Shown here one piece after another: positions 17,217-55,400 of a DNA stretch of 64,000 bases. Below the pieces are notes generated by a model. That model was not told the DNA's origin and searched no databases. It saw only the letters and a program-made list of their open reading frames with translations. The stretch is from positions 13,887-77,886 of IMG/VR virus record IMGVR_UViG_3300044247_000057; one strand, 5' to 3'. This DNA comes from a virus. Taxonomy: Duplodnaviria > Caudoviricetes. Positions within the stretch are counted from its first letter, which is position 1, and each line of letters opens with the position of its first letter. Made by a program: the position numbers and the translations under genes.

Positions 17217-18728
17217 ATGAGCTTCCGGCTGGACCGCCCTCCCAGGAACAACGACGAGCTCTACGACCTCGTCAAGGTGCTCTGGAACATCACCATCCCC
17301 AGGTACAAGACCTGTGTCGAGCACAACGCCCCCTTCGACGCCTTCGCCACCGCCTTCTTCGCCCGCGAGCCCCAGGTGCTCGTACACGGCTCCCGAGGCC
17401 TCTCCGGCAAGTCCGTGATGATGTCTGTGCTCGGTCTGACCAACGCCGTGGTGTGGGGAAGCGACTGCAACATCCTGGGTGGGTCGCTGGCCCAATCCAA
17501 CAACGTGCTGGAGTCCATGCAGCGGGCCTGGGAGTACGAGTACGCGCCTCGCTACATGCTTGCCTCGGACCAACGCAATGAGCAGCGCTTGACGAACAAC
17601 GCCCGGATCAGGCCTCTGACGGCCTCCCAGAAGACGGTCCGTGGCCCTCACCCTGCGCGCCTGCTGCTGGACGAGATCGACGAGATGGACGCCAACATCC
17701 TGGCGGCGGCCATGGGCCAGCCGATGCCCCAACGCAACTGGATGGGGGTGGAGATACCCGCCCAGACCACGATGGTCTCCACCTGGCAGTACCCCGAGGG
17801 CACCATGACCGCCGAGATGAGGCGGTTCCGGGAGAACAACCTGCCTATCTACAGCTGGTGCTTCAAAGATACGGCCAACCCCTATGACGGCTGGCTGTCC
17901 CAGGAGACCATCGACCAGAAGAAGCGAGAGATCCCCCGCGAGATGTGGCGGGTGGAGTACGAGCTCGGTGAGCCCTCCATCGGTAACCGGGCCATCGACT
18001 CCGAGTGCGTCGAGGACATGTTCGACGTCGGAGCACCCAAGCCCCTGCGGTGGACCAGGGAGCACCAGGAGTACGAGATCCTGAAGCCTTCAGTGGTCCG
18101 CGAGTACGTGGTGGCAGCCGACTGGGCCAGGGACATGGACTGGACCGTGATCGGAGTATGGGATGTCACTGAGACGCCGATTCGACTGGCGTACTACGTG
18201 CGGCTGCAGCGGCGGCCCTATCCATTCATGGTGGGACTGTTCAACGCCCTGCAGAAGCGCTACCACGCCGAAGGGATCCATGATGCGACGGGTCTGGGAG
18301 GCGTTGTCTCCGACATGATCGACGGCAAGGCCCGCAACTTCCTGATGACTGGGCGCAACAGGGACGACATGCTCTCTGAGTTCGTTGCAGCGGTCGAGCA
18401 CAACCGCGTGCGGGCGAGCAGGATCGACAGCTTCTACACCGCTTGTAAGTACGTGAGCACCGACGATCTCTTCTCTCGGGCGAAGGAGTTTCACCTTCCT
18501 GACGAGGTCTGCTCGGCTGCGTTGGCCTGGAAGGCGGTCTCTCACCGCTTCCCCAACGTGATGCCCTACGTCGCGCCCAAGGCCCAGGTGAACTGGATGG
18601 GCGACGCGGTGAGCAACAACCGGGACTTCGCCAACGTGTCGATGACCCAGGGCACCCCCGACATGAAGCGGGGTCTGGACGGGGAAGTGGTGCGCAAGGA
18701 CGAGGATCAGGCCTTCAGCTTGTCGTAA
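17217..18728 (+). CDS. Terminase large subunit
   Basis: Walker A GSRGLSGKS, Walker B LLLDEIDE, VEYELGEP, nuclease AADWARDMDWTV...HDATGLG. Confidence 0.9.
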   Translation: MSFRLDRPPRNNDELYDLVKVLWNITIPRYKTCVEHNAPFDAFATAFFAREPQVLVHGSRGLSGKSVMMSVLGLTNAVVWGSDCNILGGSLAQSNNVLESMQRAWEYEYAPRYMLASDQRNEQRLTNNARIRPLTASQKTVRGPHPARLLLDEIDEMDANILAAAMGQPMPQRNWMGVEIPAQTTMVSTWQYPEGTMTAEMRRFRENNLPIYSWCFKDTANPYDGWLSQETIDQKKREIPREMWRVEYELGEPSIGNRAIDSECVEDMFDVGAPKPLRWTREHQEYEILKPSVVREYVVAADWARDMDWTVIGVWDVTETPIRLAYYVRLQRRPYPFMVGLFNALQKRYHAEGIHDATGLGGVVSDMIDGKARNFLMTGRNRDDMLSEFVAAVEHNRVRASRIDSFYTACKYVSTDDLFSRAKEFHLPDEVCSAALAWKAVSHRFPNVMPYVAPKAQVNWMGDAVSNNRDFANVSMTQGTPDMKRGLDGEVVRKDEDQAFSLS

Positions 18729-22635: not shown

Positions 22636-24465
22636 ATGTCGACTGAGTACGTGAACCCACCGGCAGGCGGGTATCCGGAGATCATTGACGTCGCCGTGGA
22701 CGGCGAAGCCAAGAAGATCCCGGTCGGTCCGCCCTTTGTCGAGCTCGGTGGCACCGGCCTGAAGCGGTCCACCGGAGTCATCGACGAGGAGTTCCTGCCC
22801 GCGCTACGCGGGACCAAGGGCGTCAAGGTCTTCACCGAGATGTCGCAGAACGATGCGACCATCGGTGCTCTGCTCTTCACCATCGAGAAGCTGCTGCGTG
22901 AGGTCACCTGGACGGTGGTGGGGGACGACTCCTCCCCCGAGCAGGCGAAGGCGGTGCAGTTCGTCGAGGAGTGCATCGACGACATGTCCCACAGCTTCGA
23001 CGACCTGGTGGCGGAGATCCTGAGCATGCTCCCCTATGGGTGGAGCTGGCACGAGATCGTCTACAAGAAGCGCATCGGTCCCTGGGAGAACGACGGGCGA
23101 AGGCGCAGCAAGTTCACGGACGGCAAGATCGGCTGGCGCAAGATGCCGATCAGGGCCCAGGAGACGCTGCATCGCTGGCTGTTCGACGACACGGGTGGCA
23201 TCAAGGGCATGGTGCAGATCCCGGCCCCCACCTACACCCAGCGCACGCTGAGCATCGAGCGGTGCCTGCTGTTCCGCACGGGCGCGCACAAGGGCAACCC
23301 CGAGGGTCGCTCCATCCTGCGCAACGCCTACCGGCCCTGGTTCTTCAAGAAGCGGCTGGAGGAGTTCGAGGCCATCGGTGTGGAGCGTGACCTGGCCGGT
23401 CTACCCTTCGCCAAGGTCCCCAGCCAGATCATGAAGCCGGACGCGACGCCGCAGCAGAAGCAGCTGTTCACGGCGTTCAAGCGCCTGGTGAGCAACGTCC
23501 GAAGGGACGAGCACGACGGTGTGGTCATCCCCTCGGACGTGGACCCGGACACCAAGACGCCAGAGTACGACTTCCAGCTGTTGAGCTCGGGTGGTGGCAA
23601 GACCTTCGACACCAACGCCCTGATCGAGCGGTACAGCACCGAGATATTGATGACCGTGCTGGCCGACTTCATCAAGGTTGGTCACCAGGGAACGGGCTCC
23701 TACGCCCTCCATGTGGACAAGACGGGCATCTTCCGGGCCGCGCTGAACAGCATCGCCCAGGGCATCGCGGACGTGTTCAACCGCCATGCCATCCCCCGGC
23801 TGTTCGCCATGAACCAGTGGAAGCTGGACAAGCTCCCCCGGATCGAGCCCAGCAACGTCGACCCGCCCAACCTGGCTGAGCTGGGTGCCTTCATGCAGAC
23901 CATGGCCGGACTGGGGATGACCTTCTTCCCGGACCCGGACCTGGAGAAGTTCCTGCGCGAGGCCTCGCACCTGCCCGATCTCCCCCAGGAGGTGGAGGAG
24001 ATGCGGCGGGAGGAGGCCGACATGCAGAACGCCATGGCCTTCGAGGGCGCGAAGCAGAAGCAGCAGATGGTGGCCGAGGGGATGACCCCGGAGCAGGCTG
24101 AGATGCAGGCCCAGGCCCCCACACCCGAGATGCAGGAGCAGGAGCAGGCCGGGGCCATGCAGCAGCAGGAGATGGATGCCCAGGGCAAGCAGATGGACAT
24201 GGACATCAAGGGCCGCGACGCCGAGCTGAAGATGCAGGGCCAGAAGCAGGGTCTGGAGATCGACGGCAAGTCCAAGCGGCAGGCCCTGGAGCACGACCGC
24301 AGGGCCAAGGATCTGGAACACCGGCACAACAAGCGGTCCAAGGACCTGGAGTACACCCACAAGAAGCGCATCAGTGAGCTGAGCATCCGGGAGAAGAAGG
24401 AAGCCATGAAGCAGCGGCCCAAGGCGAACGAGCCCAAGAAGACCTTCCCGAAGAAGAAGAAGTGA
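22636..24465 (+). CDS. Portal protein with Q/M-rich and basic coiled C-terminal extension
   Basis: ELGGTGL...LRGTKG..F.EM..ND..IG, LPYGWSWHEIVYK, GNPEGRSILRNAYRPW, AIGVERDLAGLP; GGAGGA RBS. Confidence 0.9.
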   Translation: MSTEYVNPPAGGYPEIIDVAVDGEAKKIPVGPPFVELGGTGLKRSTGVIDEEFLPALRGTKGVKVFTEMSQNDATIGALLFTIEKLLREVTWTVVGDDSSPEQAKAVQFVEECIDDMSHSFDDLVAEILSMLPYGWSWHEIVYKKRIGPWENDGRRRSKFTDGKIGWRKMPIRAQETLHRWLFDDTGGIKGMVQIPAPTYTQRTLSIERCLLFRTGAHKGNPEGRSILRNAYRPWFFKKRLEEFEAIGVERDLAGLPFAKVPSQIMKPDATPQQKQLFTAFKRLVSNVRRDEHDGVVIPSDVDPDTKTPEYDFQLLSSGGGKTFDTNALIERYSTEILMTVLADFIKVGHQGTGSYALHVDKTGIFRAALNSIAQGIADVFNRHAIPRLFAMNQWKLDKLPRIEPSNVDPPNLAELGAFMQTMAGLGMTFFPDPDLEKFLREASHLPDLPQEVEEMRREEADMQNAMAFEGAKQKQQMVAEGMTPEQAEMQAQAPTPEMQEQEQAGAMQQQEMDAQGKQMDMDIKGRDAELKMQGQKQGLEIDGKSKRQALEHDRRAKDLEHRHNKRSKDLEYTHKKRISELSIREKKEAMKQRPKANEPKKTFPKKKK

Positions 24466-25508
24466 GCACCGCCGACATCCTGCGACAGCAGGGGGTGGAC
24501 GTCCGGCTGGTGATGAAGGCGGCCAGGGACGACAACCAGCACAAGCGTGCTGGCGGTGGTGCCATGGTCGGGGCAGGCGGCGTCGCTGCTGCCGGTGGCT
24601 TCGCTGGTGGCGGGGTTCCGGGACTGAAGTCGGACCGTCTGCTGATGGACGTCACGGGTGCGGCCAACCGGCGCGAGAAGGTGAAGATGGCTGCGCGGGC
24701 GTACAAGGGCGGGGAGTTCGGCTACCGGACCAACGCCCACCACACGCACCAGGCCTTCAACCTCAGCGATACCAAGGCTGCTCCCGATGCTTCTCGGGTT
24801 GCTCATCTCAAAGCCGCCCACAACGCCGGACAGAGTGCTGCCGAGACCAAGATCATCCGGCACCTGAAGGTGGCCCGGAAGGGGTCGCACGCTGCCCTGG
24901 TGGGTGGTGCCGGTCTGACCGCCCTGGGTGTGCACCGCATCCGGCAGGCGAAGAAAAACAAGGCACAGCCGGTCTCCAAGGCGGAGAAGAAGGGTGACAC
25001 CGCCTTCGGTGCCGCCCTGGGTGCCGGTGCTGCGACGGCTGGGGTCAGTGTGGGTGGTGCCCGGGCGCTGGAGCACCACGGGCGCAAGTGGTCCCGCTCA
25101 GCTGCTGCTGACCTGGATGAGGCGCACAAGATCATCCCGAACTCGGGCGGGCACAAGGTCAACCCCTTCCCGGGCAAGACGAACCCCCGGGTGCCCGACA
25201 TCGGCCCGGAGAAGGGCGAGTCGAAGGTCTGGCGGGACCCGAAGATCCTGGCGGGGAAGTCCAAGGCCCAGGCCGCGAAGGTGGGAGAGCTGCGCGGGAA
25301 CGCCATGAAGAGCCGCTACTTCGCCGGGGTGTACGGGAAGATGGGTGGAGCTGTTCGCCGCATCCGTAACCCTGCCATCGGGGTGGCCACGGTGGGTGCG
25401 GGCGGTCTGGCGGTGACCCATCACAAGAAGAAGGACAAGGTCGCCAAGTCCCTGTTCGAGCTCCGTGTGGAGTCGATGCACCCAAAAGCACAGTCAGCAA
25501 GGGGGTAG
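24462..25508 (+). CDS. Basic Gly/Ala-rich modular head-region protein A (N-terminal part of a possible frameshift fusion)
   Basis: Four G/A-rich hydrophobic segments, each next to a K/R cluster; LVMK|A, VSK|A and VAK|S motifs. Confidence 0.75.
   Translation: MSTADILRQQGVDVRLVMKAARDDNQHKRAGGGAMVGAGGVAAAGGFAGGGVPGLKSDRLLMDVTGAANRREKVKMAARAYKGGEFGYRTNAHHTHQAFNLSDTKAAPDASRVAHLKAAHNAGQSAAETKIIRHLKVARKGSHAALVGGAGLTALGVHRIRQAKKNKAQPVSKAEKKGDTAFGAALGAGAATAGVSVGGARALEHHGRKWSRSAAADLDEAHKIIPNSGGHKVNPFPGKTNPRVPDIGPEKGESKVWRDPKILAGKSKAQAAKVGELRGNAMKSRYFAGVYGKMGGAVRRIRNPAIGVATVGAGGLAVTHHKKKDKVAKSLFELRVESMHPKAQSARG
25481..25487 (+). other. Candidate -1 ribosomal frameshift site C CCA AAA
   Basis: In-frame XXXYYYZ heptamer; hairpin GCAAGG/CCTTGC begins 9 nt downstream; the -1 frame is open to 26896 and has no ATG/GTG/TTG between 25370 and 25574. 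Confidence 0.6.
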
Positions 25509-26896
25509 GCCTTGCGGGTCTGGTCGAGAACGCTGCCACCGCCACCGCTGGCAGCGTAGGCCTCAGTGAAGCCGTGCGGCGGAAGCGGCGGCGCAAGCGG
25601 GCCAAGGTCGCCAAGTCCTTCATCAACGGCAAGTTCGTCCGGGCCGTCGATCTGGGTGCCAAGCAGAAGCACAAGATCCGGACGGTGAACCAGTACGCCC
25701 AGTCCAAGGGCGCTCTGGGCAACCGCTCCGACCCCGTGCTGTCGGGCTACCGGAAGAAGATCGAGACCGAGGCAGGTCCCTTGCGGGAAGCCTTCAAGAC
25801 CGGCGACCAGGCCAAGCTGGCTGAGTTCGGCGAAAAGGCTGGTTTCGACGCCTTCGCCCACCGGATGGGGGGCAAGGGCGGCGGCAAGTCCATGGTTCAC
25901 ATCACGCCCAAGAACGAGTACAAGGAGAAGTTCGTCAGCCAGTCGATGGGTGAGAAGTCCCACGGCCACCTCGGCAGACACGAGGCCGCGCACGCCTCGA
26001 CGAAACGATCCGAGTACCGGTTGCACGGTCAGATCCCGGCCAGCATGAAAAAGCACGGTCGGGAGGAGGGGCGGGCCGACTTCATCGCCAGTGGTCACTA
26101 CAGGGGCGCTGGACACAAGCCCACGGAGTTGGGTGAGGCACCTTCCGGCTACTCCAATGCCGTCCAGCAGTGGGAGAAGCCTGGGTTCAAGAAGAAGACC
26201 ATCCCTGAGGCGCGCAAAGCCCACGTGGAAGCGGGTGCTTCGTCCAAGGAGTTCGACCGGACCATCAAGGGTCAGAACAACTGGAACAAGGGCTACCGCC
26301 AGGTGCACGAGAAGATGCAGGCGGCCAAGACCGCCCGCACCGTCAAGCCCCAGGTCGCTCCCAGGCCGGTGGCCGAGCCTGCCCCCACTCCCGCACGGCC
26401 CGCGTACATCCCCGGACCAGGACCTCAGACCGCTCCCAAGCCAGGTCGGTTCAAGCGGATCTTCAGCCGCAAGGACCGGGTGGGCAAGGCCTACACAGTG
26501 AGGAAGGCAGACATGGAGTTCCCGATGAAGGGGGAGATCGCCAAGATGCTCCCCACCATGGCTGAGAGGAAGCTCATGGTGGCGGATAACAAGCTGCGGC
26601 GGGCTGCCGACAAGGTGACCCAGAAGGCCCACTTCAAGGCCCAGAAGACGGCGCAGAAGACAGCGCTCGGCACCACGAGGCAGATGACCAGGGACTTCAA
26701 GGCTGCCAATCCGGGGAGGAAGACGACGGCGCAGTTGCAGGAGCACCACGACGCCGTGAAGGCGGTGCGCGATCAGCACTGGGCCCAGAAGCAGTCCGGG
26801 ATCATCGCCCACAACAAGCGCCCGGGGAAGATGCGCAGCCAGTGGGCTGGAGACCCCAACCTGCCCGGCACGCGCACCACGATGTTCGGTGGCTGA
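25487..26896 (+). CDS. Head-region protein B (-1 frame of A) with HExxH zincin-like motif; the track annotates only 25574-26896
   Basis: The -1 frame reads STVSK|GVGLAGLVENAATATAGSVGLSEAVRRKRRRKRAKVAK|SFING...; it contains HEAAH and EEGRAD. Confidence 0.65.
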   Translation, partial: STVSKGVGLAGLVENAATATAGSVGLSEAVRRKRRRKRAKVAKSFINGKFVRAVDLGAKQKHKIRTVNQYAQSKGALGNRSDPVLSGYRKKIETEAGPLREAFKTGDQAKLAEFGEKAGFDAFAHRMGGKGGGKSMVHITPKNEYKEKFVSQSMGEKSHGHLGRHEAAHASTKRSEYRLHGQIPASMKKHGREEGRADFIASGHYRGAGHKPTELGEAPSGYSNAVQQWEKPGFKKKTIPEARKAHVEAGASSKEFDRTIKGQNNWNKGYRQVHEKMQAAKTARTVKPQVAPRPVAEPAPTPARPAYIPGPGPQTAPKPGRFKRIFSRKDRVGKAYTVRKADMEFPMKGEIAKMLPTMAERKLMVADNKLRRAADKVTQKAHFKAQKTAQKTALGTTRQMTRDFKAANPGRKTTAQLQEHHDAVKAVRDQHWAQKQSGIIAHNKRPGKMRSQWAGDPNLPGTRTTMFGG

Positions 26897-27753
26897 TGCC
26901 CGACGCAGATCTGACCTTCCGAGTGGGCCTGAAGGTCAACCAGATGCCTAAGACCAACCTGCTGCAGAACGCCGTCTACGAGTCCATCGACCGCAAGTGG
27001 TACCTGTGTCAAGCCCAGGACGCGGGAGCTCGGGACCGGGAGCACAGCATGATCCGGCGCTTCTCCCGCACGGGCACGTTCGAGGGCACCACCAAGTGCG
27101 AGCTGTTCGGCCACGGCAACCAGATCGGGGTGCGCAAGTCAGCCGCAGGCAACGTCTGGATCTGGGTGCCGATGGACTCTTACAACGGCTCCGGTCACAC
27201 CACCAGCACCAAGCCTGCTCGGGTCGTCTTCGAGAAGGGCTCTACCCGGGTGCGCAAGGAGTCGGCGGTGGTCGACATCTATGACGGTGGGCTGGCTAAC
27301 CAGGGCTTCGGGCTGTCGGCGGAGAACCCCGGCATCCTCTACCTGCGGAAGGGCCACTCCGGCTCCGAGACCTACCGGATGGTGGACGAGGAGGCCTACC
27401 GCAAGGGCAACGGCAAGTCCAAGGTGTACGGCGAGGTCGAGGTCTCCAAACACAACCGGGGGAAGTACTTCCAGGGCTGTGGGGCAGGCGGGGACACTCT
27501 GGCCGTGCTGTCCGGCTCCACTGGTCACAACCAGTACATCGACGTCTACAGCTTCGAGAAGCGCAAGAAGCTGACCCGGCTGACCATCCCGATAAGCCAG
27601 ATCTACCGCTGCCTGAAGAGCGGTGGAGCCACCTACAGCAGTGCCGAGGCCGAGGGCCTGCAGTTCATCGACGGTGCCCTGTACATGGGTGCCCGCTCGG
27701 GCCCACCGGGGAAGAAGCGCGACTTCTCCATCATGGAGGTGTCCGGATGGTGA
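26896..27753 (+). CDS. TagC / P68-RBP-like beta-propeller protein
   Basis: FGHGNQIG, VWIWV, QGCG, SSAEAEGL; TGATG-coupled start at 26896. Confidence 0.6.
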   Translation: MPDADLTFRVGLKVNQMPKTNLLQNAVYESIDRKWYLCQAQDAGARDREHSMIRRFSRTGTFEGTTKCELFGHGNQIGVRKSAAGNVWIWVPMDSYNGSGHTTSTKPARVVFEKGSTRVRKESAVVDIYDGGLANQGFGLSAENPGILYLRKGHSGSETYRMVDEEAYRKGNGKSKVYGEVEVSKHNRGKYFQGCGAGGDTLAVLSGSTGHNQYIDVYSFEKRKKLTRLTIPISQIYRCLKSGGATYSSAEAEGLQFIDGALYMGARSGPPGKKRDFSIMEVSGW

Positions 27754-38824: not shown

Positions 38825-40903
38825 ATGGCCACTCCGCATCCGGAGAGCAGGTTCAAGGGGTTGCTCCTCTCTCCGGAAGAGGCCGCTGCGGTCGCCGGGA
38901 TACGTGCCCGCATGCCAGTCGGAGTGCGGTCGGTCGGTCTGGCCCTGTCGGCGGTCTTCTCGCTCTACCGCTGGATCATGCAGCGTCGGCTGAAGGACGT
39001 TCAAGGAACGACTCCGGCGCTGATGGAGCAGGCCCTGCTGCTCGGGCTCCGGGAGTCCTTCATCGCCTTCCAGCCCACCCTGACGTCGATGACCACGCCG
39101 ATCATGTACGCGGGCTATCTGGTCGGTGTGCAGGAGTCCGGGGTGAGGCTGCCTCAGCATGTGCTGGCGCAGATGGCCAACGGCTACGCCCCGAGCCTGG
39201 GGAACTACATCCACACCGTCAGCAGCGACGCCCTGCTGGCAGGCTTCCGGGCCCTGGTGAACCGCAAGGTCGACCACAGACGTGCCCTGAAGCTGACCAC
39301 CGACGCCTACGGGGTCGACACCCGGACCATGAACACGCTGGTCAACGTGTGGACCGCCGAGGAGGCCAAGGGCTTCACCAACGTGCGGCAGATCGTCTCG
39401 GTCAAGGAGAAGCGGGCCGCCACGATCATCGCTCAGAAGGTCAAGGAGCGGGCCCACATCCTGGGTGCGCACGAGGCCTGGAACGCCAAGGAGCAGGCCA
39501 AGGAGGCGTCCTGGCTGTGGGCGATGGAGAACGGGATCATCACCGGGGCGGCTCGCAAGATGTGGGTGACCGCCGATGACGAGCGGGTCTGTGCCTCCTG
39601 TGGCCCCCTGGACAAGGTCCAGATCAAGGTGACCGACAGGTTCGAGACCACCGTGGGCAAGACGCTGACCCCGCCGCTGCACGTCGGCTGCCGGTGCGAG
39701 GTCACGCTGAGCGCCAGCATGCGTCGGATCCTGCTGGGACAGCTCCGCAGGAAGCCGGTGAGGAAGGCCTACGAGGGGCACCCCTGGGCCCGGAACCAGA
39801 AGCGCAACGAGGAAGGTGAGTGGGTCAAGGGCCCCAGCAGCGCCCATGGTCAGCCCCAGCCCGCGCTGGCACCACAGCCGGTGTACGACCCGGAACCACC
39901 AGAGCCCCCGCCGTCCGCTCCGGTGGAGGAGGAGTACATCGCCTTCGGGCCTCAGTACATCGCCTTCGCTCCACAGCCTGCTGAGCCGATTCAGTTCGGG
40001 CCACCACCACAGCAGGCGTCCCCTGCTCCCGCTACTCCACACATCGAGTTTCAGCCTCGACCCGAGGCGATCCAGTTCGCCCCGCCACCTGCGCAGTCCA
40101 TCGAGTTCAAACCACACACGACGCCGTTCTCGCACGCCACCTACACCCCGTCCCAGGCGACGCCGCAGCCGGTGGCTCCGCGCCCGAAGGAGCGGCAGCG
40201 GTTCGAGGAAGAGCAGTGGAAGCCGCCCAAGCCGAGCATCATCACCCTGGACCGGGGCGAAGAGGTCTACGGCGTGGTGCCGGACGACTTGGACCACGTC
40301 GAGGACTACGAGCTCGACCAGAATCGGATGGTCAACGACTTCGCCGACGCGCACGAAATGGTCGAGAACCAGTTGGCTGAGAACTACACCGAACGCATCT
40401 ACGACGCTCTGGAGGAGGAGGGGAAGGACCTGGTCCCCATCTACTCCGAAGGTGGCGAGCAGTACTACGCCGACTACGAGGGCCTCCGGTCACTGTTCGA
40501 GTGGACCAGGGCCAAGCAGATCTACGAGGACCGGAAATCGTCGGGGATGCCGGAGTACATGGATCCACCAGTGTCCTTCGACCCGATGCAGGAGATCCAG
40601 GTTCACTCCAACTACGACAACAGGGCGCACCAGATCGAAGCCGAGGTGTTGTCCCGCAAGGGTCGGCTCCGGGGTCAGGCCATTGATGACGTGATCGAGG
40701 AGATCACACCGTCGTTGGTCAAGGTCGACCGGATCGACATGGAGTTCAGTACCGAGGACCTGGGCTTGAACCGCAGAGACCACCCTGACTGGATTGTCAC
40801 TGGTCCCCACCACAACATCGAGGTTCTCGGCTCGATCACCGACCCCGAGACCGGTCAACGGATCCTGGCTCACGCCTACCATCTCGACCCCTTCGACGAG
40901 TAG
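38825..40903 (+). CDS. MuF / SPP1 gp7-like minor head protein with C-terminal extension
   Basis: KMWVTADDERVCASCGPLD...PPLHVGCRC; then VRK|A, a Pro-rich linker and an acidic domain. Confidence 0.85.
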   Translation: MATPHPESRFKGLLLSPEEAAAVAGIRARMPVGVRSVGLALSAVFSLYRWIMQRRLKDVQGTTPALMEQALLLGLRESFIAFQPTLTSMTTPIMYAGYLVGVQESGVRLPQHVLAQMANGYAPSLGNYIHTVSSDALLAGFRALVNRKVDHRRALKLTTDAYGVDTRTMNTLVNVWTAEEAKGFTNVRQIVSVKEKRAATIIAQKVKERAHILGAHEAWNAKEQAKEASWLWAMENGIITGAARKMWVTADDERVCASCGPLDKVQIKVTDRFETTVGKTLTPPLHVGCRCEVTLSASMRRILLGQLRRKPVRKAYEGHPWARNQKRNEEGEWVKGPSSAHGQPQPALAPQPVYDPEPPEPPPSAPVEEEYIAFGPQYIAFAPQPAEPIQFGPPPQQASPAPATPHIEFQPRPEAIQFAPPPAQSIEFKPHTTPFSHATYTPSQATPQPVAPRPKERQRFEEEQWKPPKPSIITLDRGEEVYGVVPDDLDHVEDYELDQNRMVNDFADAHEMVENQLAENYTERIYDALEEEGKDLVPIYSEGGEQYYADYEGLRSLFEWTRAKQIYEDRKSSGMPEYMDPPVSFDPMQEIQVHSNYDNRAHQIEAEVLSRKGRLRGQAIDDVIEEITPSLVKVDRIDMEFSTEDLGLNRRDHPDWIVTGPHHNIEVLGSITDPETGQRILAHAYHLDPFDE

Positions 40904-40931
40904 ACGCGCAAAGGAGAATGAACCCATGGAC
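40898..40931 (+). repeat. Shared 34-nt intergenic/start element, copy 2
   Basis: See 35983-36016. Confidence 0.7.
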
Positions 40932-41846
40932 GTGGTCAAGGCACTGCAGGAGCACAGCGAGGCTGGTGCCACCATCGTCGACCTGCTCTACGGGGACGCG
41001 GGCGCAGAGGTCTCCAAGGCGCTGATCGAGTTCGGCAAGGAAGAGAAGAAGAAGGACACCCAGAAGCGGATCGCCCAGGTCTCCAACCTGGTCGGTATCG
41101 GAGCCGGTGCGGCAGCCGTCCCCGGTGCCTTCAAGCAGCTCGGTGAGGCGCACCGGAAGTACTACAAGCGCCCCGAGAAGCCGAAGAACACCACCCAGAC
41201 CCGCAAGCTGATCGCCACCGCCAAGCACGGGACGGGGATCAAGCGCGTGGGAGCCAAGGGTGTGCTGAAGGCGCGCAAGCTCTACCGCAACCCCAAGGTC
41301 GTCCTGGGACTGGCTGGTGCTGGTGCTGGGCTACAGGTGGGCAACCTGGCGGGCGACACCATCACCAACCAGGTGCTGAACCGGAAAGAGAAGAAGGCCG
41401 GTGCGACGCCACCGCCCAAGGAGTTCGGCAAGACGGAGTTCGACATCTACACCGAGATCTCCAAGGTCGACTCCGACAAGCGTCAGGTCTTCGGCTGGGC
41501 CTCCGTGACCAAGTCCGGTGGCATCGACGTGGTCGATCTCCAGGGTGACGTGATCCCACTGGAGGAGATCGAGAAGGCCGCTTATGAGTTCGTCAAGAAG
41601 TCCCGGGTCGGCGGCAAGATGCACGGCAAGGGCGAGGCCGGACCGATCCAGGTCTCCGACATGATCGAGTCCTTCGTGGTCACCCCGGAGAAGAAGGCGG
41701 CCATGGGCCTCCCGGACGAGACGCCGGAAGGCTGGTGGGTCGGCTTCAAGGTGAACGACGACAACACCTGGGCCGAGGCCAAGGACGGCAAGCTGGCCGG
41801 TTTCAGCGTCCACGGGAGCGGGCGGAGGGTCCCGACTGATGCCTAG
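40926..41846 (+). CDS. Prohead protease (XkdF / S78-type) with N-terminal cargo-like module
   Basis: EISKVDSDKRQVFGWAS, DLQGD...EEIEKAAY.F, MHGK, IES, GWWVGFK...W, GFSVHG. Start ATG 40926. Confidence 0.85.
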   Translation: MDVVKALQEHSEAGATIVDLLYGDAGAEVSKALIEFGKEEKKKDTQKRIAQVSNLVGIGAGAAAVPGAFKQLGEAHRKYYKRPEKPKNTTQTRKLIATAKHGTGIKRVGAKGVLKARKLYRNPKVVLGLAGAGAGLQVGNLAGDTITNQVLNRKEKKAGATPPPKEFGKTEFDIYTEISKVDSDKRQVFGWASVTKSGGIDVVDLQGDVIPLEEIEKAAYEFVKKSRVGGKMHGKGEAGPIQVSDMIESFVVTPEKKAAMGLPDETPEGWWVGFKVNDDNTWAEAKDGKLAGFSVHGSGRRVPTDA

Positions 41847-42639: not shown

Positions 42640-43473
42640 ATGCCGAACAGATTGAGCGACATGATCTTCGACGAGGTGAGCCTCGTCTACAAGGGCGCGA
42701 ACCAGCACTCGCGGGTCGCCATCGCCAAGTCTGCTGACGGCGTCGAACAGGAGGAAGCCATGGGATACACCGATCAGGATGGGAACCCCGTCGACGTCAA
42801 CAGCCTCGCAGAGGGCGATGTTGTCTTCGATGAGGACGGGCAGGGGTTCGTCTACACCGAGCAGGACGTGGACGAGATCGAGGTCGAGGAGTACGAGGAA
42901 GAGCCCCAGCTGGTGGGCAAGAGCTTCCCGACCCGACAGACGTACGCGCAGGACCCGGACTTCGAGCAGGACGTGCGGTGGAGCCTCTCCAAGGCCGTCA
43001 CCGACGAGGACCGCGACGAGGTCATCTCCAAGGCCGCTGGCTACATCTCGCACCTGGAGAGCCTGGTCCACAAGGCGCAGGCCGATGTCGAGGTCGAGCG
43101 GGAGATTCGCCGCGAGTCCGAGTACATGGAGATCGCCAAGTCCTACGGGGGTCTCCCGGTGGGCGAGGAGCAGCTCGCGGCAGCCCTGATGGACTGCGCG
43201 GACAACCTCGACGAGTCCAGCATCGTGACTCTGCAGAAGTGCCTCTCGGCAGCCAGTGACTCGGCTCTCAACGAGATCGGTGCCACGGGCGGCGGATTCA
43301 ACTCCGACGTGATGGCGGTCATCGAGCAGCACGCCAACTCCGGGGTCTCCAAGAGTGAGGACTCCTCCACGGAGGCCGAGATCGCCAAGGCCTTCGAGCA
43401 GGACCCGTCCTTGTACGCGCAGTACCTCAACGAGACCGGTGGCTACAACAGCGCACCGCGTTACAACTTCTGA
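42640..43473 (+). CDS. Capsid scaffolding protein with N-terminal protease-like strand
   Basis: Acidic and helical, just before the capsid genes; begins DEVSLVYKGAN; all 10 Lys are in [VIL]-x-K-[SAGC]. Confidence 0.8.
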   Translation: MPNRLSDMIFDEVSLVYKGANQHSRVAIAKSADGVEQEEAMGYTDQDGNPVDVNSLAEGDVVFDEDGQGFVYTEQDVDEIEVEEYEEEPQLVGKSFPTRQTYAQDPDFEQDVRWSLSKAVTDEDRDEVISKAAGYISHLESLVHKAQADVEVEREIRRESEYMEIAKSYGGLPVGEEQLAAALMDCADNLDESSIVTLQKCLSAASDSALNEIGATGGGFNSDVMAVIEQHANSGVSKSEDSSTEAEIAKAFEQDPSLYAQYLNETGGYNSAPRYNF

Positions 43474-43921: not shown

Positions 43922-44938
43922 ATGCCGAGCCCCACGCAGTCTGACCTGCACATCAATCAGCCGCTGACCAACGTCAGCGTGGCCTATATCCAGTCGGCGA
44001 AGAACTTCATCGCGGACAAGGTCTTCCCGAAGGTCCCCGTCTCCAAGCAGTCGGACCTCTACTGGAAGTACTCCAAGAGCGACTGGCGACGGACTGACGT
44101 CCAGCGTCGGGCCCCGAGCACTGAGACTCCGGGCACCGGCTGGAACGTCGGGACCGATCAGTACTTCGCGCACGTGTACGGCGTCCACAAGGACATCGAC
44201 GACCAGCTCCGCGCCAACGCGGACTCGCTGTTCAAGATGGACTCTGACGCCACCGCGTTCGTGACCAACCAGCTGCTCATCAAGCGGGACCTGGACTGGG
44301 CGGCCAGCTTCTTCCGTCCGGGTGTCTGGCTCACCGACCAGCAGCTGAAGAAGGGCACGGGCGGCAGCCCGGAGGGTCAGCGGTGGGATCTCGCCACCTC
44401 AGACCCGGTGGGCTTCTTCGCTACGGCCACGGTCAACTTCATCCAGCAGACCGGCTTCAAGCCGAACACGCTGGTGATGGGGGCCAACTGCCTGAAGGCC
44501 CTGAAGAACCACCCGGCCATCATCGACCGGATCAAGTACACCCAGCGGGGCATCGTCACCGAGGAGCTGCTCAGCACGCTCTTCGGGGTCGACAAGATCC
44601 TGGTCTCCTACGCCACCTACTCCGATGGCGTGGACATCGAGGACATGGCGTTGCAGGACGCGGCTGCGGTGAACAAGTTCATCGCCAACCCGAACAGCGC
44701 GCTGCTCTGCTACACCCCGTCGAGCCCGTCCCTGATGAGCCCGGCTGCCGGTTACACCTTCACCTGGAACGGCTACCTGGGCGGCAACGCGCAGGGCATC
44801 CGGATGGCTCGCTTCCGCATGGACGCGATCCGCTCGGACCGGATCGAGGGTGAGATGACCTATTCGATGCAGGTCATCAGCCGCGACTGCGGTCTGTTCC
44901 TCACCGACGTCGTCGGCTCTGCGGTGGACGTCCCGTAA
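43922..44938 (+). CDS. Major capsid protein (lambda gpE-like)
   Basis: LTNVSVAY, FIADKVFPKVPV.KQSD.Y, PNTLVMG, LKNHPAIIDRIKYT, GYTFTW. Confidence 0.9.
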   Translation: MPSPTQSDLHINQPLTNVSVAYIQSAKNFIADKVFPKVPVSKQSDLYWKYSKSDWRRTDVQRRAPSTETPGTGWNVGTDQYFAHVYGVHKDIDDQLRANADSLFKMDSDATAFVTNQLLIKRDLDWAASFFRPGVWLTDQQLKKGTGGSPEGQRWDLATSDPVGFFATATVNFIQQTGFKPNTLVMGANCLKALKNHPAIIDRIKYTQRGIVTEELLSTLFGVDKILVSYATYSDGVDIEDMALQDAAAVNKFIANPNSALLCYTPSSPSLMSPAAGYTFTWNGYLGGNAQGIRMARFRMDAIRSDRIEGEMTYSMQVISRDCGLFLTDVVGSAVDVP

Positions 44939-47858: not shown

Positions 47859-48086
47859 ATGGCAGACAAGAGCAAGAGCGCAACCACCGCTCACCGTGGC
47901 ATGGTCAGAGTCACCGCTGGAGACAGCGAGGCATGGGTGGTGCCGTCCTCGGTGAACGCCTTCGTCCGCAACGGATGGACGGCGGAGGAAGAGTCCGGGG
48001 CTGACGTGCAGGACCAGCCGTCCGCTACCGAGACCAACGCAACAAGCGAGGCGGCTGCCTCCGGTACGGAAGGAACAGACAAGTGA
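47859..48086 (+). CDS. Small virion-associated hypothetical protein
   Basis: ATG 47859; V.PSSV....RNGW motif. Confidence 0.55.
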   Translation: MADKSKSATTAHRGMVRVTAGDSEAWVVPSSVNAFVRNGWTAEEESGADVQDQPSATETNATSEAAASGTEGTDK

Positions 48087-48559
48087 CCCGCCTCATTCCG
48101 AACGAGAACACCTACATCGGGTTCGTGCCGACCATCGTCGACATCCACGCTCCGAAGACCAGCGAGCTGGCGACGGCCATCGACGTGACCAGCTACGCGC
48201 TCAGCGTGACGGCGGCCACCACCGGCAACACGGTGCCCACTCCGTCCCTGGACACCCTCTTCGAGACCAGCATCGCCGGTACGGTCTCGGGCTCGTTCAC
48301 CGCTGACTTCTACCGCGATGACGAAGAGGACCTGGCCTGGGAGACCTTCCCGCGCAAGCAGAAGGGCTATGTCGTCCTCTCCCGCTTCGGTGGCAGCGGC
48401 CCCGGGGCTGTCCCCATTGCCGCCGACACCGTCGAGGTCTGGCCGATCCTGGTGGTCTCCCGGACCATGAGTGCCGGTGGCAACAACACCGTGCTCACCT
48501 TCACCATGACCGCCGCCGTTCCGGAAGAGCCCGACGAGGAAGCCATCATCGGAGCCTGA
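48083..48559 (+). CDS. Major tail (tube) protein
   Basis: FVPTI.D..AP..SEL..A.DVT, TPSLDT.FET.I.GT, FYRDD, VEVWP. Confidence 0.85.
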   Translation: MTRLIPNENTYIGFVPTIVDIHAPKTSELATAIDVTSYALSVTAATTGNTVPTPSLDTLFETSIAGTVSGSFTADFYRDDEEDLAWETFPRKQKGYVVLSRFGGSGPGAVPIAADTVEVWPILVVSRTMSAGGNNTVLTFTMTAAVPEEPDEEAIIGA

Positions 48560-48645: not shown

Positions 48646-49071
48646 ATGACCGCGAAGATCGCGCTCGACAACACCACCCTGAGTGAAGATGCCCTCGGCG
48701 AAGACAAGATCTCTCTGAAGGACCAGTTCCTGAAGAAGAAGAAGAGGATCGACAAGCAGAAGATCACCTTGGACGGCAACGTCGTCGAGGTGACCATCCA
48801 GGCTCTGACCCAGCGGGTGTTCGACGACCTCGTTGCTGCCCACCCGAAGCGGCGGAACAAGGAGGAGGACGACCTCATCGGGGCCAACTCCAAGACCTTC
48901 CCTCCGGCTCTGTTCGAGGCATCGGTGCAGGACCCCAGGATGAGTCTGGAGGAGTGGACCGACATCTGGACCTCCGATGCCTGGTCCCCCGGTGAGCTCG
49001 GCCACCTGCTCAACATCGTGCTCGGAACGACCTCCCGTGGGTTCGACGTCCCTTTTGGCGGGCGCGGCTAA
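48646..49071 (+). CDS. Tail assembly chaperone G
   Basis: Between tail tube and tape measure; FDDLVAAHP; ends at the slippery site (DVPF). Confidence 0.85.
   Translation: MTAKIALDNTTLSEDALGEDKISLKDQFLKKKKRIDKQKITLDGNVVEVTIQALTQRVFDDLVAAHPKRRNKEEDDLIGANSKTFPPALFEASVQDPRMSLEEWTDIWTSDAWSPGELGHLLNIVLGTTSRGFDVPFGGRG
49050..49056 (+). other. -1 programmed frameshift C CCT TTT giving chaperone GT (48646-49442)
   Basis: In-frame heptamer; the -1 frame continues WRARLRQDAKFALEMSWCAEKGL... to TGA at 49442. Confidence 0.85.
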
Positions 49072-49428
49072 GGCAGGACGCCAAGTTCGCCCTGGAGATG
49101 TCCTGGTGCGCCGAGAAGGGACTCCCCCACTCGGCCCTCCTGGACTGGGAGGTCGAGGACCGCGCCAAGCTCCACGCCTACCTGATCGAGGAGTCAGACC
49201 GGTGTGGTCTGTGCGGCACGATGGGCTGGGAATGGACCGAAAACCGCTTCGCGTATACCCCCGTGGAGAAGACATGTCCAGGCTGCTACGCCCGCCACGT
49301 GGCTGGTGAGGAGACAGGACGCCTTCCAGGGACGACAATCATTCTGGTGCCGTCGTCAGCGGCCTTCCTAGAGAAGCAGCGCCAGGGGTACGAGAAGGCC
49401 ATCCGGGAGCGGAAGAAGGCGGCACAGA

Positions 49429-52400
49429 ATGGCTCAGGCTGATGACTACACCGTCACGCTTGACGCCAATACCAAACCGTACGAACAGAACATGGGCTCG
49501 GCGGTATCCGCCACCCAGGGCCTCACTGCAGCACTAGCCGCCGCTGGCGAGCAGATGAACTCGCTGTGGAAGCGAGCCGACCGCAAGCTCACTTTCATCA
49601 CCGCCGCCAATGTCGCCTCGCTGACCGCAGCAGGACTGGCCGCTGCCCGGCTGGACCAGCAGATGGAGCAGCTGCAGGCCCGGACGGTGATGGTGGACCA
49701 GAAGACCAACGCCTACAACAGCACGGTCGCCACCCTGCGCAAGACCCTGGGGATGACCGGGGCGGACGCCATCTCTCTGGTGACCAACCTGAACCGGCTG
49801 AACGTCCCCTTCACCAAGCAGCAAGAGACAGCCAAGTCCTACGCCCAGCTAGCAGCGGTGACGGGTGAGAACATCAACGGTCTGGCCCAGAGCCAGCAGC
49901 AGTTCATCCGGACCATGGGCACCGGTCAGGGGGCCGTCCAGCGGTACTCCTCGATGGTCGCCAACCTGTCCCAGAACTACGGAGCCGGGGCCCAGTCCAC
50001 CCTCGATTTCGCCAACAGCATCGCTCCCCTGTCCAAGACCATGGGGATGAGCGCCCAGCAGATCACCGGCATCTCGGCAGCCTTCTCCAAGGCGGGTGCC
50101 GATGGTGGGGCAGCGGCGAACGTCTATACCAAGGTCCTGAGCGACATCAACCGCTCGATCCAGTACGGGTCACCGGAGCTGGAGGCCTACTCCGACATCC
50201 TCGGAGTGACCGTCGACCAGTTCAAGGCGATGCCCAAGGCCGAGGTCATCACCGGCATCTTCAAGGAGCTGAACGCCCAGGGGCCCCAGGGCATCAAGAC
50301 CCTGGAGCGGCTGGGCCTGGAGGGAGTCCGGTCCCAGAAGGCCATCCAGGCAGTGGTCACCCAGGGTGGTCTGGGCGAAGGGATCCGGGCAGCGGACAAG
50401 GGGTGGGCCGACCCAGGCAAGTTCGGCAGGGCCGCCGACGAGGCCATGTCCGGCTTCTTCGACACCATGTCCAAGGCCGGGCAGGGCATGCAGGTCTTCG
50501 CCCAAGGGGTCGGATCGGTCTTCGTCCCGGCCATGGAGAAGGTCGCCAACGTCATCAACCCGGTGGCCCAGACCCTGGCCACCCTGGGCAACGCCGTCTC
50601 CAACATGCCGGACCTGGCCAAGTGGGCAGGGGCCGCTGTGCTGGGGCTCGGTGCCCTGGTGCCGATGCTGCCCAAGATCCTCTCGATCCTGACCGCCACC
50701 TCACTCATCCCGGCCATCGGCAAGGGCTCTCTCGGCCAAGGCTTCCTGCTTGGTCGCAGTCCCAACCGTCAGATGTCGGAGGCCCAGAAGACCTTCGCCG
50801 CTGGTGGTGGCAACGCCGTCTACCGCAAGATGTTCTCTGCCGCCATGTACGCGGGCGACATGTTCAACCCGGTGGGGGCCAGGGGCCGTCTGGATGACGT
50901 CGAGTTCACCAAGCCTGGCCCGGAGGGTGGGAAGGCCAACGTCACTTCCGGCTGGGCCCGTGGCGCTGACTGGCTGGCCGGACGAGGCATCCTGCCACCC
51001 GACTACGCCGAGCAGATGGCGAAGGCACAGAAGGGCGTTTCGGGAGGTATTCGCAAGGGTGCCATCGGCGGCATCAACATCCTGGGCGGGCTGGTCACCG
51101 AGAACCTGCGGCCCTGGACCGGTGGGTACCTGGAAGACTCCGCCAAGGCCTCCCAGAGGAGCCCGAACGCCCTCACCCAGGCGTCCCGGTTCCGGGACAC
51201 AGATGTCGGTCAGAGTGTCGTAGGAGCGGTCAACAGGCTGGGGTTCGGCACTTCCCGTGAGGGTGTGGCCATGAACATGGAGGCCACGAAGGCAGCCGCT
51301 GCCGGAGCCAGCAAGAACTTCCGGGAACTCGGCAAGACCTTGAACCTCCTGGGTACCAACGGCAAGTCCTCCAGCACTGTGATGGGGCAGCTGGCCCGGT
51401 CACTGGGCCAGGTGGCCGTGATGGGGGCCAAAGCCGGTGCGGGCATGGTCGGAGGGACCGCTCTCGGTCTGGCGGGTGCGCCGTTCAGGGGCGGCAAGGA
51501 GTCCCTGGCGTACAAGGCCGGTGCGGGCGCGCTGGGCCTGGTGGGTGGTCCGGCTGGGCTGGCTCTGATGGGTGGGACGGCAGCCATCGGTCTCGGCGTC
51601 AACGCCTGGGCGGACTCCAGGGCGACCCGTAAGCAGGCCTTCGTCCAGGAGCAGGGGGTCGACAACGCCCCCGGTGCCACCTACCGCGAGGCCCTGGGAG
51701 AGGCGTCCAAGGCCACCCGGACCTTCGCCAAGGCGATGGAGGACGCCGGGATCGGCACCGTGAAGGCCGTCACCGGCATGAACGATGCCCTCACCATCAC
51801 GGCGGAGCAGGCCAAGACCGCCTATGGCCGGATGGACCTGATCGAGGACCAGTACGTCAAGAGCGCCTCTAAAGCTGATGTCGAGAGGTACGCGACAGCC
51901 ACCCTGTCCACCGCCTCCCCAGAGGTGGCCAACAAGCTGAAGATGGACGTCGCGGCTCGGTTCGGCCAGACCGAGGGCAACCAGCTGCTGAAAACTGCCT
52001 ATCAAAACCGTGGGCAGATGCAGAACCTGTTCGGCGCGTACGACCAGGTGAACGCCGGAGGTGACTGGTACAACAGCGGCGTCGTGCACGAGTCTCTCTT
52101 CCTGAGCGACAAGAACAAGGCCACCTCCGAGATGATCAAGGGTGCGCTGGGGTCCAACATCGCCCGGGCAGCGGAGACCGGTGGAGCGGAGGAGGCAGGA
52201 CGGGTCCAGCAGGCCCAGCTCGCAGGCTACGGAGCAGAGGACCTGAGGGCGCGCAGGTCCGGCACCGACCATGCCCCGGTGCGGAGACAGCGTCGGGACA
52301 ACATCCTCAGCTCCTTCGGTGTGACCGAGGACGACAAAGCCAGCCGGGAAGCTCTGGACCGGGTGATGGAAGGCGTCGAGCAGCGGTCCCGGGGTGTCAC

Positions 52401-55400
52401 CGACCCCAAGGAGCTGGAGAAGATCTTCGCCGAGGGGATCCACAAAGGGCTGGCCAACACCACTCTCGGCTACCAGATCTCCGAGGCGGAGAAGCAGGGC
52501 GGCGTCGTCTCCTCCGCCAACTACCAGATGAAGGGCAACGCCGACCTCGGCAACTTGGCCAACTTCGGGTCCCAGATGGTGATCGACCGGCTGCGCACGA
52601 CCGAGGCAGGAAGGGTCGCTACCAACCAGGACCCGAACGGCCAGCGGTGGAACGCCCGGGAGAACTTCAACGCGGCCCTGGGTGGAGAAGCCAACGAGGA
52701 CATGCAGGTTGCCGCCGATGTCTCCATGGCCCAGCAGCTGATCGCGGACGCGGGTGGGGACTTCACCAAGGCCGCTGGCCAGGTGCAGCTGATGGGCAAC
52801 GCCTCGGGTGCCGCCACCGACAAGATCAACCAGCACACCAACGCCATCGAGGCCATGATCATGGCCGAGCGGCAGTATGCCAACGTCATGGGTGGCAAGA
52901 CCACCCTGAACGATCAGATGCTCACTGGTGCCAAGGACTTCGGCAACCAGATGCAGACGTTCGCCGCTGCCCCGAACGCACCGGACAACAAAAAGAACCT
53001 GAAGGCCGCTGTCGACGCGAACATGGCCCTGCGGATGCAGGGGCAGGAGGAGGCCCAGCAGCTGGCCGACCAGTTCGTGAACGTGCAGTGGCAGCGGGAG
53101 CAGGGTGAGGTCCAGCTGGCCCGCACCCGGTCCCGGATGCTGCGTGACTTCAACCAGCAGCAGGCCTGGGGGGAAGAGGACTTCGCCCGGCAGCGTGAGA
53201 TCAACCTGCGCAACTTCAACCTGCAGCGCAAGCGGGCGCAGGAGGACTTCGACCTGCAGCGGTCCTACTCCATCGAGGACTTCGAGCGGTCCCGGAGGGA
53301 GGAGGAAGAGGACCACCACCGCATGGTCAAGCGGAACATCGAAGAGCAAGCCAAGACGATGTACAACGCCTACCAGCGGGTCACCGTCCAACGCACCTGG
53401 AGCTCCGGTTCGCTGCTGCAGAACATGGAGGACCAGCAGAAGCGGATGATCGAGCAGCAGGAGAACCTGGCGGAGGCCCGGAAGAAGGGTCTGAGCGACC
53501 AGGCGATCTCCCAGCTCGGTCTGAACGAGGCTGCCAACGCCCAGCAGCTGGAACGGCTGATGCCGGACCTGAACGACCCCAAGGTCGTGGCTCAGTACAA
53601 CAAGGCGGTCAAGAGCCGGATCAAGGAGACCGGGAAGCTGGTCCAGGACGAGTCGAACCTCTCCTACCAGCAGCAGGAGGAGGACCGCGAGCGCAACCTG
53701 AAGCGCAGCGACTCCGCCTTCTACCGTGGCCTGGACCGCTCCAGCAAGGCCTTCGTCAAATCCATGAAGCGTCAGAAGACCGACATGGAGACGATGAACG
53801 ACGACCAGATCGAGCAGTTCGACATCAACCGTGCCCGTCAGCGCAAGCAGATGGAGCAGGGCTGGAAGGACATGAAGGCTGACTTCGACTTCCAGATGGA
53901 ACTGCAGATCGACAACATCAACCACTACGCGGAGAAGACTGCTCGCTCGTGGGAGGAGAACCGCAAGATCATCGCGGAGAACACCTCCGGGCTGACCAAG
54001 GAGCAGACCACCGCTACCGGCAAGCTGATGGACAAGCTGGATGAGCAGATCGTCGCGGGCAACGAGGCCATCGCCGGTCACATCTACGCGGTCTACAACG
54101 AGTGGGGACTGACTCCGAGCAAGAAGAACGTCAACTCCACCCAGGCCGGGGCCCACGGTCCTGGTGGCTCACACGCAGCGACCGGTGGGTCCGAAGACGT
54201 GCACTCCGACCACGCTGCTGTCTATGCCGGTGGCTGGGGCGGTCCCACCGTCGCCAACCCCGGCAGCATGAGCACGGGCAGCTACACCGGTAACGACGCC
54301 TCTGCCGGTCGCGGCTACCCCACCACCTCCCACGCACAGAGCGCCAAGTACGGCGACTACAACGGCAAGTGGTCCGGGTCCAACTCCCTCGGCAGGGGCT
54401 ACCACTCCGGCACCGACTTCCCGAACCCATCCGGCACCAACATCTACGCCGCCGCCGATGGCACCGTGGCCTTCCGGGGCTGGAACAGCGCCTACGGCAA
54501 CTTCACCAAGATCGACCACGGCAACAACCTGCAGACCTGGTACGCCCACCAGAGCGCCCAGAACGTGTCCACCGGGGACAAGGTCAAGAAGGGCGAGCAC
54601 ATCGGTGATGTGGGCCAGACCGGCAACGCGACTGGTCCCCACCTGCACTTCGAGGTCCGGGTCAAGGGCATGGACAAGGACCCGATGAAGTGGCTGAAGG
54701 GAGCCTCCACCACAGGAGGCAGTGGCACCCCGTCCACGCCACTGCCCGATTTCGCCAAGGCCAAGCCGTTCGTGGACTACGAGAAGCTGCTGGCCTCGAT
54801 GGACTTCATGAACAAGGACTGGGTCAAGTACCGCAACAGCTTCTTCTTCCGTCAGCACGCGCTGGCCGAGGCGGTCCAGAAGGACTTCGACAAGAAGCTG
54901 GCCGAGAAGCAGGCAGCAGATGCGGCAGCCGGTGCCGGGACCGCAGGCGGGGTGGACTCCGGTGGCAAGGGTGGAGCCCGGGGAATCTGGAACGCACTGC
55001 GGACCGGTGGTCTGAGCGAGAAGCAGGCCGCTGGCGTGATGGGCAACATGTGGTCGGAGTCGAACCTGATTTGGAACATCGTCCAGGGCGGCAAGAGGTC
55101 CTCCAGCACCAGCCACAGCCAGGGCTACGGCCTGGTGCAGTGGACCCCCGGCACCAAGCTCGGGGAGATCCTGAAGAAGGCGGGCAGGAAGAACAACCTG
55201 GAGAACCAGGTCTGGGCGCTGATCCAGCAGCTCAACGGCAAGGGACCCCATGCCGAGTCCGCCGCAGGCAAGGACCTGAAGAAGCAGACCACGGTGCTGG
55301 GGGCCACCGCGTCCTTCCTGAAGAAGTACGAGCGGGCCGCCGACACCTCCGACTCCAACGCCAAGCGGCGCAACAAGAAGTCCGAGGAGTACTACAAGCT

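Follow-up and report, generated by a model that had tools for sequence, protein, structure and literature searches.

A candidate programmed −1 ribosomal frameshift between two genes beside the portal gene of a soil phage

Results

Two genes and a slippery heptamer downstream of the portal gene

We analyzed a 64,000-nucleotide stretch of tailed-phage DNA (hereafter the window; positions 13887-77886 of the IMG/VR provirus record IMGVR_UViG_3300044247_000057; GC 64%) in which almost all genes lie on the + strand. Two consecutive genes on this strand follow the gene for a Mu-type portal protein (22636-24465). The first, g348 (24462-25508), begins at a GTG that overlaps the portal stop codon and encodes a protein of 348 amino acids (aa) in what we call frame 0. 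The second, g440 (25574-26896), lies in the −1 frame and encodes a 440-aa protein if it starts at GTG 25574. From the sequence and its relatives we propose that the two genes are probably joined by a programmed −1 ribosomal frameshift at the heptamer C CCA AAA near the end of g348.

The 3′ end of g348 reads ATG CAC CCA AAA GCA CAG TCA GCA AGG GGG TAG. The heptamer C CCA AAA (25481-25487, + strand) is in frame, in X XXY YYZ phase, and both tRNAs can re-pair. The frame-0 TAG (25506-25508, + strand) follows six codons later, inside the loop of a predicted hairpin (hairpin 1, below). Annotated frameshifts in high-GC SEA-PHAGES genomes average 26 nt from the slippery site to the stop (PMC10885494), and we count the 19 nt between heptamer and stop, being near this average, in favor of frameshifting. 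The −1 frame has a stop at 25367-69, is open from 25370 into g440 and reads PKSTVSKGVGLAGLVENAATATAGSVGLSEAVRRKRRRKRAKVAKS. Its earliest ATG, GTG or TTG past 25370 is GTG 25574; there is no start codon within the linker STVSKGVGLAGLVENAATATAGSVGLSEA (25487-25573, + strand), and only shifted ribosomes would translate it. Any −1 shift within the overlap gives a fusion of 342 + 469 = 811 aa. The heptamer, the in-loop TAG, the −1 frame open without a start until 25574 and the 811-aa length had all been listed in a preliminary description of the locus, and all are in the sequence.

Single-ORF relatives place the frame change at the heptamer

A HMMER scan with the −1 frame product placed the first ~250 residues of g440 in an unannotated HExxH...EExRAD family (the HExxH family), the majority of whose members are stand-alone proteins of ~255 aa. 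In two members, P0036 (569 aa) and P0011 (645 aa), the domain is preceded by a g348-like part within one and the same protein. P0036 (IMGVR_UViG_3300018432_000195) is encoded by a single open reading frame (ORF; contig L004, 3914-5707), and the synteny of L004 is as in the window: a portal gene with a GTGA start overlap, the fused ORF and then a propeller gene. Both proteins thus have the same domains as the window in the same order, and P0036 has the same synteny as well. P0036 is 49% identical to g348, and P0011 is 64-71% identical. Unlike the window, both relatives have one continuous frame with no slippery site; their HExxH domain belongs to another subtype (~35% identity) that lacks the ~190-aa C-terminal extension of g440, and in P0011 the linker module is missing at the junction.

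We found that the alignment of frame-0 g348 with P0036 spans residues 1-341 and stops at the heptamer's Pro codon (E = 1e-57), and that the −1 frame product aligns with P0036 from residue 11 past the heptamer through the HExxH domain (E = 4e-18), with the high-scoring BLAST segment beginning inside the 65-nt gap between the two genes. The 29-residue linker itself matches the modules of P0036 and P0011, at levels reached by 29/5,000 and 7/5,000 shuffles (p = 0.006 and 0.0014, respectively), and the remaining two frames of the same DNA give background scores against these modules. Moreover, the linker residues V-S-K of the −1 frame (25493-25501) align with a conserved I-S-K in P0036 and P0011. 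The suggestion that this apparent gap encodes a family-type module is therefore upheld: the −1 frame, and no other, gives a peptide homologous to the linker of the relatives. Because of these frame-0, −1-frame and linker alignments, the frame change can be placed between ~25484 and 25493-25511, and the heptamer sits at the start of this interval.

A shift could instead occur just upstream of the stop codon. If tRNA-Gly slipped in the P site on A GGG GG, at a slow TAG (25500-25508), the product would read ...AQSARG-VGLAG... and would also be 811 aa long. Slow decoding of stop codons favors P-site slippage, as at prfB and other sites, and here a run of five Gs directly precedes the stop. The alignment of V-S-K with I-S-K, however, puts the shift upstream of 25493, though through three residues only, and the usual phage signal is a tandem-slippage heptamer. 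We regard slippage at the G run as quite improbable.

Heptamers of the kind found in g348 are rare in this genome. The + strand of the 64 kb holds 11 XXXYYYZ heptamers (Y = A/T) in any phase. Its genes, 18,849 codons in total, contain 4 A/T-type heptamers in frame; for two of them a stop follows 5-6 codons later and the −1 frame stays open past it into the following ORF. The probability that an in-phase heptamer falls by chance within the 14-codon frame-change interval is ~0.0024. The second of the two sites is C CCT TTT at 49050-49056, five codons before the TAA of ORF 48646-49071, from which the −1 frame runs to 49442. This pair (48646-49442) lies between the major tail (48083-48559) and tape measure (49429-56181) genes, the canonical position of the tail chaperones, and very likely represents a C CCN NNN site that slips elsewhere in the same genome. 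The g348/g440 pair, which follows the portal gene, lacks the position expected of the tail assembly chaperone pair G/GT. The literature yielded nothing informative on CCCAAAA as a named slippery site of phages.

The junction is present in independent assemblies

Is the base count at the junction real? Near-identical cluster members from other sources exist for both the 440-aa and the 348-aa protein. ENA contig L002 (ERZ27251438) differs from the window at 81/5,958 positions (98.7% identity) without an indel, and its heptamer, stop and GTG are the same. Contigs from two further soil studies span the junction with 0 gaps (X3, record 3, 25398-26896; X4, record 7, 25171-25652). X3 lies near the haplotype of L002 and X4 adds a third, which brings to at least three the haplotypes with an identical heptamer and layout. 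The junction was not bridged in runs X5 and X6, and no RNA dataset holding the sequence was listed among public runs. Haplotype differences around the junction comprise one substitution in 25350-25585 and six in 25586-25609, numbers too small to speak of constraint over 25350-25609.

The preliminary description had offered a one-base homopolymer error or a recent indel as the alternative to frameshifting. Indels in homopolymers are common assembly errors. A false join may also be at hand in P0051 (610 aa, ENA), a g348-like protein of another lineage whose middle reads like the relatives' −1 frame and then joins the next gene; this fusion is probably due to an indel or assembly error in its contig, and it cautions that false fusions occur in these data. 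Yet the window and the L002, X3 and X4 contigs have the same base count, and such independent assemblies exclude a sequencing error. Decay of the region into a pseudogene is opposed by the ratio of non-synonymous to synonymous differences (pN/pS) of 0.07 downstream of the junction. An artefact or a decaying pseudogene is thus the least probable of the explanations that we consider. The other half of the one-base alternative, a fixed homopolymer indel, stands, since one extra C or A gives a single frame; we return to it below.

Upstream of the heptamer, all four soil runs contain contigs that are dissimilar to the window except for short pieces; these match only the ~36 nt at 25424-25460 (4-5 mismatches) and then diverge, one of them continuing as ...KS VFSNGPYMQE. 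This segment may be a conserved module boundary common to other phages.

Initiation and selection at g440

How else could g440 be translated? GTG 25574 is the sole canonical start that retains the HExxH domain. It lies 65 nt past the g348 stop, and its Shine-Dalgarno (SD) pairing energy is −2.8 kcal/mol, which 71% of random positions equal; gene starts have a median of −6.2, and values of −6.5 to −11.3 are found for most genes that follow a real gap. None of the other 13 HExxH-family loci in IMG/VR, the fused L004 contig aside, has the window layout. Where their starts can be read, these are ATG or GTG with an SD, or they overlap the upstream stop, as in ATGA, and g348-like genes with a different, separate gene downstream show a clean CAC TGA TG overlap. 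With no SD, a gap and an order unlike other family loci, the window layout is therefore atypical for a simple two-gene arrangement.

Several further routes to a g440 product were considered and rejected. A TTG at 25512 is in frame 0 and not in the −1 frame, and CTG 25520, 14 nt from AAGGGGG, has a low prior as a start. Stop-codon readthrough would meet another TAG in frame 0 at 25554-56, and the four-A run is too short for transcriptional slippage.

Comparison of the window with L002 indicates purifying selection on g440, in which 13 differences are synonymous and 3 non-synonymous (pN/pS 0.07); in g348 the counts are 5 and 0 (pN/pS 0). In the linker, read in the −1 frame, there is 1 synonymous and no non-synonymous difference, and pN/pS is not meaningful there; this sole difference, 25543 C>T, falls in the apical loop of a second predicted hairpin and is synonymous in the −1 frame. 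The pN/pS of g440 argues that the gene is expressed and functional and therefore excludes decay, but it is silent on how translation starts.

Gene fission and other points that weigh against frameshifting

Several findings count against a programmed frameshift. The two-frame layout is conserved only among haplotypes ~1.3% apart. The closest divergent relatives, P0036 and P0011, are in-frame fusions, and the L004 junction reads ATC GAC CCC ATC AGC AAG, with no slippery site. Searches of viral, metagenome and genome collections found no relatives of intermediate divergence. Inserting one C or A would turn the two genes of the window into a single ORF; if a C4A4 or C3A5 run had lost one base and the loss had become fixed, the result would be exactly this heptamer in the same phase. 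Stand-alone HExxH homologs start ~11 residues before their KS motif, which is the place of GTG 25574. Finally, GC content at third codon positions is 0.68 in the −1 frame of the linker and 0.87 in g440, and it is also lower at the 3′ end of g348.

Several of these points also favor gene fission, in which a one-base deletion became fixed in an ancestral single ORF (CAC CCC AAA AGC or CAC CCA AAA AGC) and the HExxH protein came to start independently at GTG 25574. If so, g348 ends early, the heptamer is the scar of this deletion and the linker is a coding sequence that has recently been orphaned. Fusion and fission are frequent in the family, with P0036, P0011, P0039 and P0050 fused and L005, L006, L012 and L013 split, and independent expression would account just as well for the purifying selection on g440. 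Fission nevertheless requires a start codon without an SD to suffice, 65 nt past a stop, unlike the split family members and most gapped genes of this phage. The linker keeps significant −1-frame homology, at an identity about that of the selected domain, and has acquired no stop or indel; the deletion would thus have to be recent and yet older than the haplotype split. Moreover, the break coincides exactly with the point at which stand-alone g348-like proteins naturally end, and for the scar to double as a perfect in-phase slippery site, the ancestor must have carried a rare run at the exact domain boundary. We therefore consider fission the strongest competitor, live but less likely than the frameshift. 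The two explanations are not exclusive, as a deletion in a slippery run could be tolerated because the run frameshifts.

Structure around the heptamer adds little to the case for a programmed site. Two hairpins and a pseudoknot had been put forward as stimulators. Hairpin 1 (25497-25515, + strand) has 6 bp, pairing GCAAGG (25497-502) with CCTTGC (25510-515) around the 7-nt loop GGGTAGG; it begins 9 nt past the heptamer and has a folding energy of −9.4 kcal/mol (z = −1.22). Hairpin 2 (25530-25557, + strand; 9 bp + 2 bp) is predicted 42 nt past the heptamer. Both hairpins are thus predicted in the sequence, but a stimulatory role is not supported beyond chance: fold z-scores are −1.0 to −1.2 against dinucleotide shuffles, and 29-30/200 shuffles fold equally well. 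The pseudoknot, which would pair downstream GCCACC copies with the first loop, is not supported beyond chance, as 40% of shuffles equal this pairing, and an upstream GGAG is equaled at 31% of random sites. The tail-chaperone shift site of the same phage shows no significant structure either (z = −0.2 and +0.9). Because that site is equally without structure, we do not take weak structure as a strong count against C CCA AAA, and hairpin 1 is a possible stimulator at the right spacing. An Rfam scan of 25300-25800 returned nothing relevant.

Searches for additional relatives did not extend this picture. An 811-aa single-ORF ortholog of the window type was not found. The phage GenBank collection gave no match by DNA (near and distant) or by protein, viral contigs searched with either single protein gave no close relatives, and none were found in GTDB genomes with alignments A3 and A2. 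Among the relatives found, near-identical haplotypes alone keep two frames around a conserved heptamer, and no divergent one does. The frameshift proposed earlier is accordingly strengthened by a relative with one ORF and by a frame switch that falls at the heptamer, and weakened by stimulators that do not rise above chance.

The two proteins and their shared motifs

The g348 protein, which is basic and rich in Gly and Ala, is a member of an unannotated family. It has no match in Pfam, PHROG or PDB, its structure models are helical and of low confidence, and by no test is it a capsid protein. g440 consists of an N-terminal HExxH...EExRAD domain, a Pro-rich linker and a helical C-terminal part. 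Its HEAAH lies at 25979-25993, and H136, E137, H140, E164, E165 and D169 are invariant in 22 HExxH-family sequences. An HExxH with a downstream acidic ligand conserved across the family, as zincins have, is thus present, and the motif pattern marks the domain as a candidate zincin-like (gluzincin-like), zinc-peptidase-like metallopeptidase. Searches with g440 found no Pfam family and no significant PDB match by sequence or fold. Weak SprT-like, M78 and Tox-MPTase2 matches were obtained with one HExxH-family member each. Fold searches with g440 were dominated by its C-terminal helices, Foldseek and VIA searches with the model gave no interpretable fold, and the protein atlas gave sub-threshold leads only.

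A 15-nt sequence, AAGGTCGCCAAGTCC, occurs as an exact direct repeat on the + strand, at 25437-25451 and at 25604-25618, the copies 167 nt (3n+2) apart. The first copy encodes KVAKS in frame 0 and the second encodes KVAKS in the −1 frame, at the start of the HExxH domain, where K14-S15 (VAK|S) is nearly invariant (family alignment A4). In P0011, the two domains are joined directly at the KVAKS motif, and recombination between the repeat copies would give this direct in-frame junction.

The pattern [VILF]xK[AS] is strongly enriched in two head genes of the window. The putative scaffold (42640-43473) has 8 occurrences vs 0.41 expected and the protease gene (40794-41846) has 6 vs 1.24, counts reached by 0/500 shuffles in both cases, which suggests that the pattern is a recognition motif of the head protease. 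In g348 and g440, there are 3 each vs 1.4 expected, which is not significant (p ~0.17).

A second motif recurs at protein ends. (M)SAFGVEH is the exact C-terminus of many g348-like proteins (L005, L006, L012 and L013), which end ...RMSAFGVEH* followed by a TGATG overlap, and M-x-SAFGVEHG is the N-terminus of stand-alone HExxH proteins and of some g348-like proteins (P0008, P0009, P0007 and P0040). The window His codon that is homologous to the end of SAFGVEH is the codon that begins the heptamer. SAFGVEH could serve as a leader for targeting or cleavage, or as a linker for recombination between cargo modules.

Genome setting

The large terminase gene (17217-18728) lies upstream of the portal gene, and a gene for a five-bladed propeller protein (26896-27753) follows g440. 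The MuF-like gene (38825-40903), the protease and scaffold genes and the major capsid gene (43922-44938) come much later. The gene order between 22636 and 44938 is unusual in that ~14 kb separate the portal gene from the MuF-like, protease, scaffold and capsid genes, a stretch that carries propeller, GH26-like, collagen/tail-fiber-like and lysin-like genes. The label of head-region genes, given earlier to g348 and g440, holds insofar as they adjoin the portal gene; it is only positional, the MuF, protease, scaffold and capsid genes being ~13-18 kb downstream. No tRNA genes were found in the window.

Discussion

Our analysis suggests that two neighboring phage genes are probably joined by frameshifting into a fusion protein, made alongside the shorter product of the first. 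Ribosomes translating g348 would arrive at C CCA AAA (25481-87), where the majority would stay in frame 0, stop six codons on and release the 348-aa protein. A minority would slip one base back, with tRNA-Pro moving from CCA to CCC and tRNA-Lys from AAA to AAA, and would read the linker and g440 to give the 811-aa fusion (...MHPK-STVSK...). We prefer this reading because it needs only slippage at the heptamer, and a C CCN NNN site very likely slips elsewhere in this genome; that slippage takes place here, at some rate, is what the sequence leads us to infer.

Why produce such a fusion? It would tether the HExxH domain, which is zincin-like, to the basic, Gly/Ala-rich product of a gene beside the portal gene. 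The two proteins may be virion-internal cargo, in which case the fusion would fix the amount of peptidase loaded, and the head protease may later cut it at VAK|S. More tentatively, and with a probability that we judge to be low, the shift might set the ratio of a zinc-peptidase cargo tethered to a membrane-active, portal-proximal internal protein; the fusion would enter the capsid, the head protease would free the peptidase at VAK|S, and delivery into the host would occur with the DNA. As a hypothesis, processing of a packaged fusion by the head protease, in the manner of Gag-Pol, is compatible with the [VILF]xK[AS] pattern.

Genes that are fused in some genomes and split across frames in others are frameshift candidates (PMC10885494), and g348/g440 would offer a concrete test case for this rule. 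If the frameshift is true, recoding is used to load an enzyme-like module, and the gene model should be corrected to an 811-aa product that gene callers miss. The work also defines a soil-phage protein family (g348-like proteins and the HExxH domain) that currently lacks annotation. Phage frameshifts are annotated almost only in tail chaperone genes, and g348/g440 would be a second site in the same genome, a known recoding mechanism in a new gene pair of an internal-protein-like product and an HExxH domain.

How does this pair compare with known systems? The −1 frameshift of the tail assembly chaperones G/GT of tailed phages, of the lambda type, was reportedly described by Xu, Hendrix and Duda in 2004. 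As in G/GT, an X XXY YYZ heptamer lies a few codons before the stop of the short product, the −1 frame leads into an ORF without its own start, a short and a long protein would have a common N-terminus, and the phage's own chaperone site is also of the C CCN type. Unlike G/GT, the pair follows the portal gene, its products are unrelated to chaperones, and the long form would add a 469-residue enzyme-like domain. T7 gene 10A/10B and other capsid-gene frameshifts are also listed in PMC10885494; there, as proposed here, a −1 shift near the end of a virion-associated gene yields a minor extended form, but T7 adds a short tail to its major capsid protein, whereas g348 would gain a whole second gene with a catalytic motif. 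The likeness to retroviral and Ty Gag-Pol is one of logic only: frameshifting fuses an enzyme, at a fixed low ratio, to an abundant protein associated with the particle, with release by a particle protease made plausible by the VAK|S that flanks the HExxH domain. There is no homology to Gag-Pol, and packaging and cleavage of the g348-g440 fusion are proposed here by analogy.

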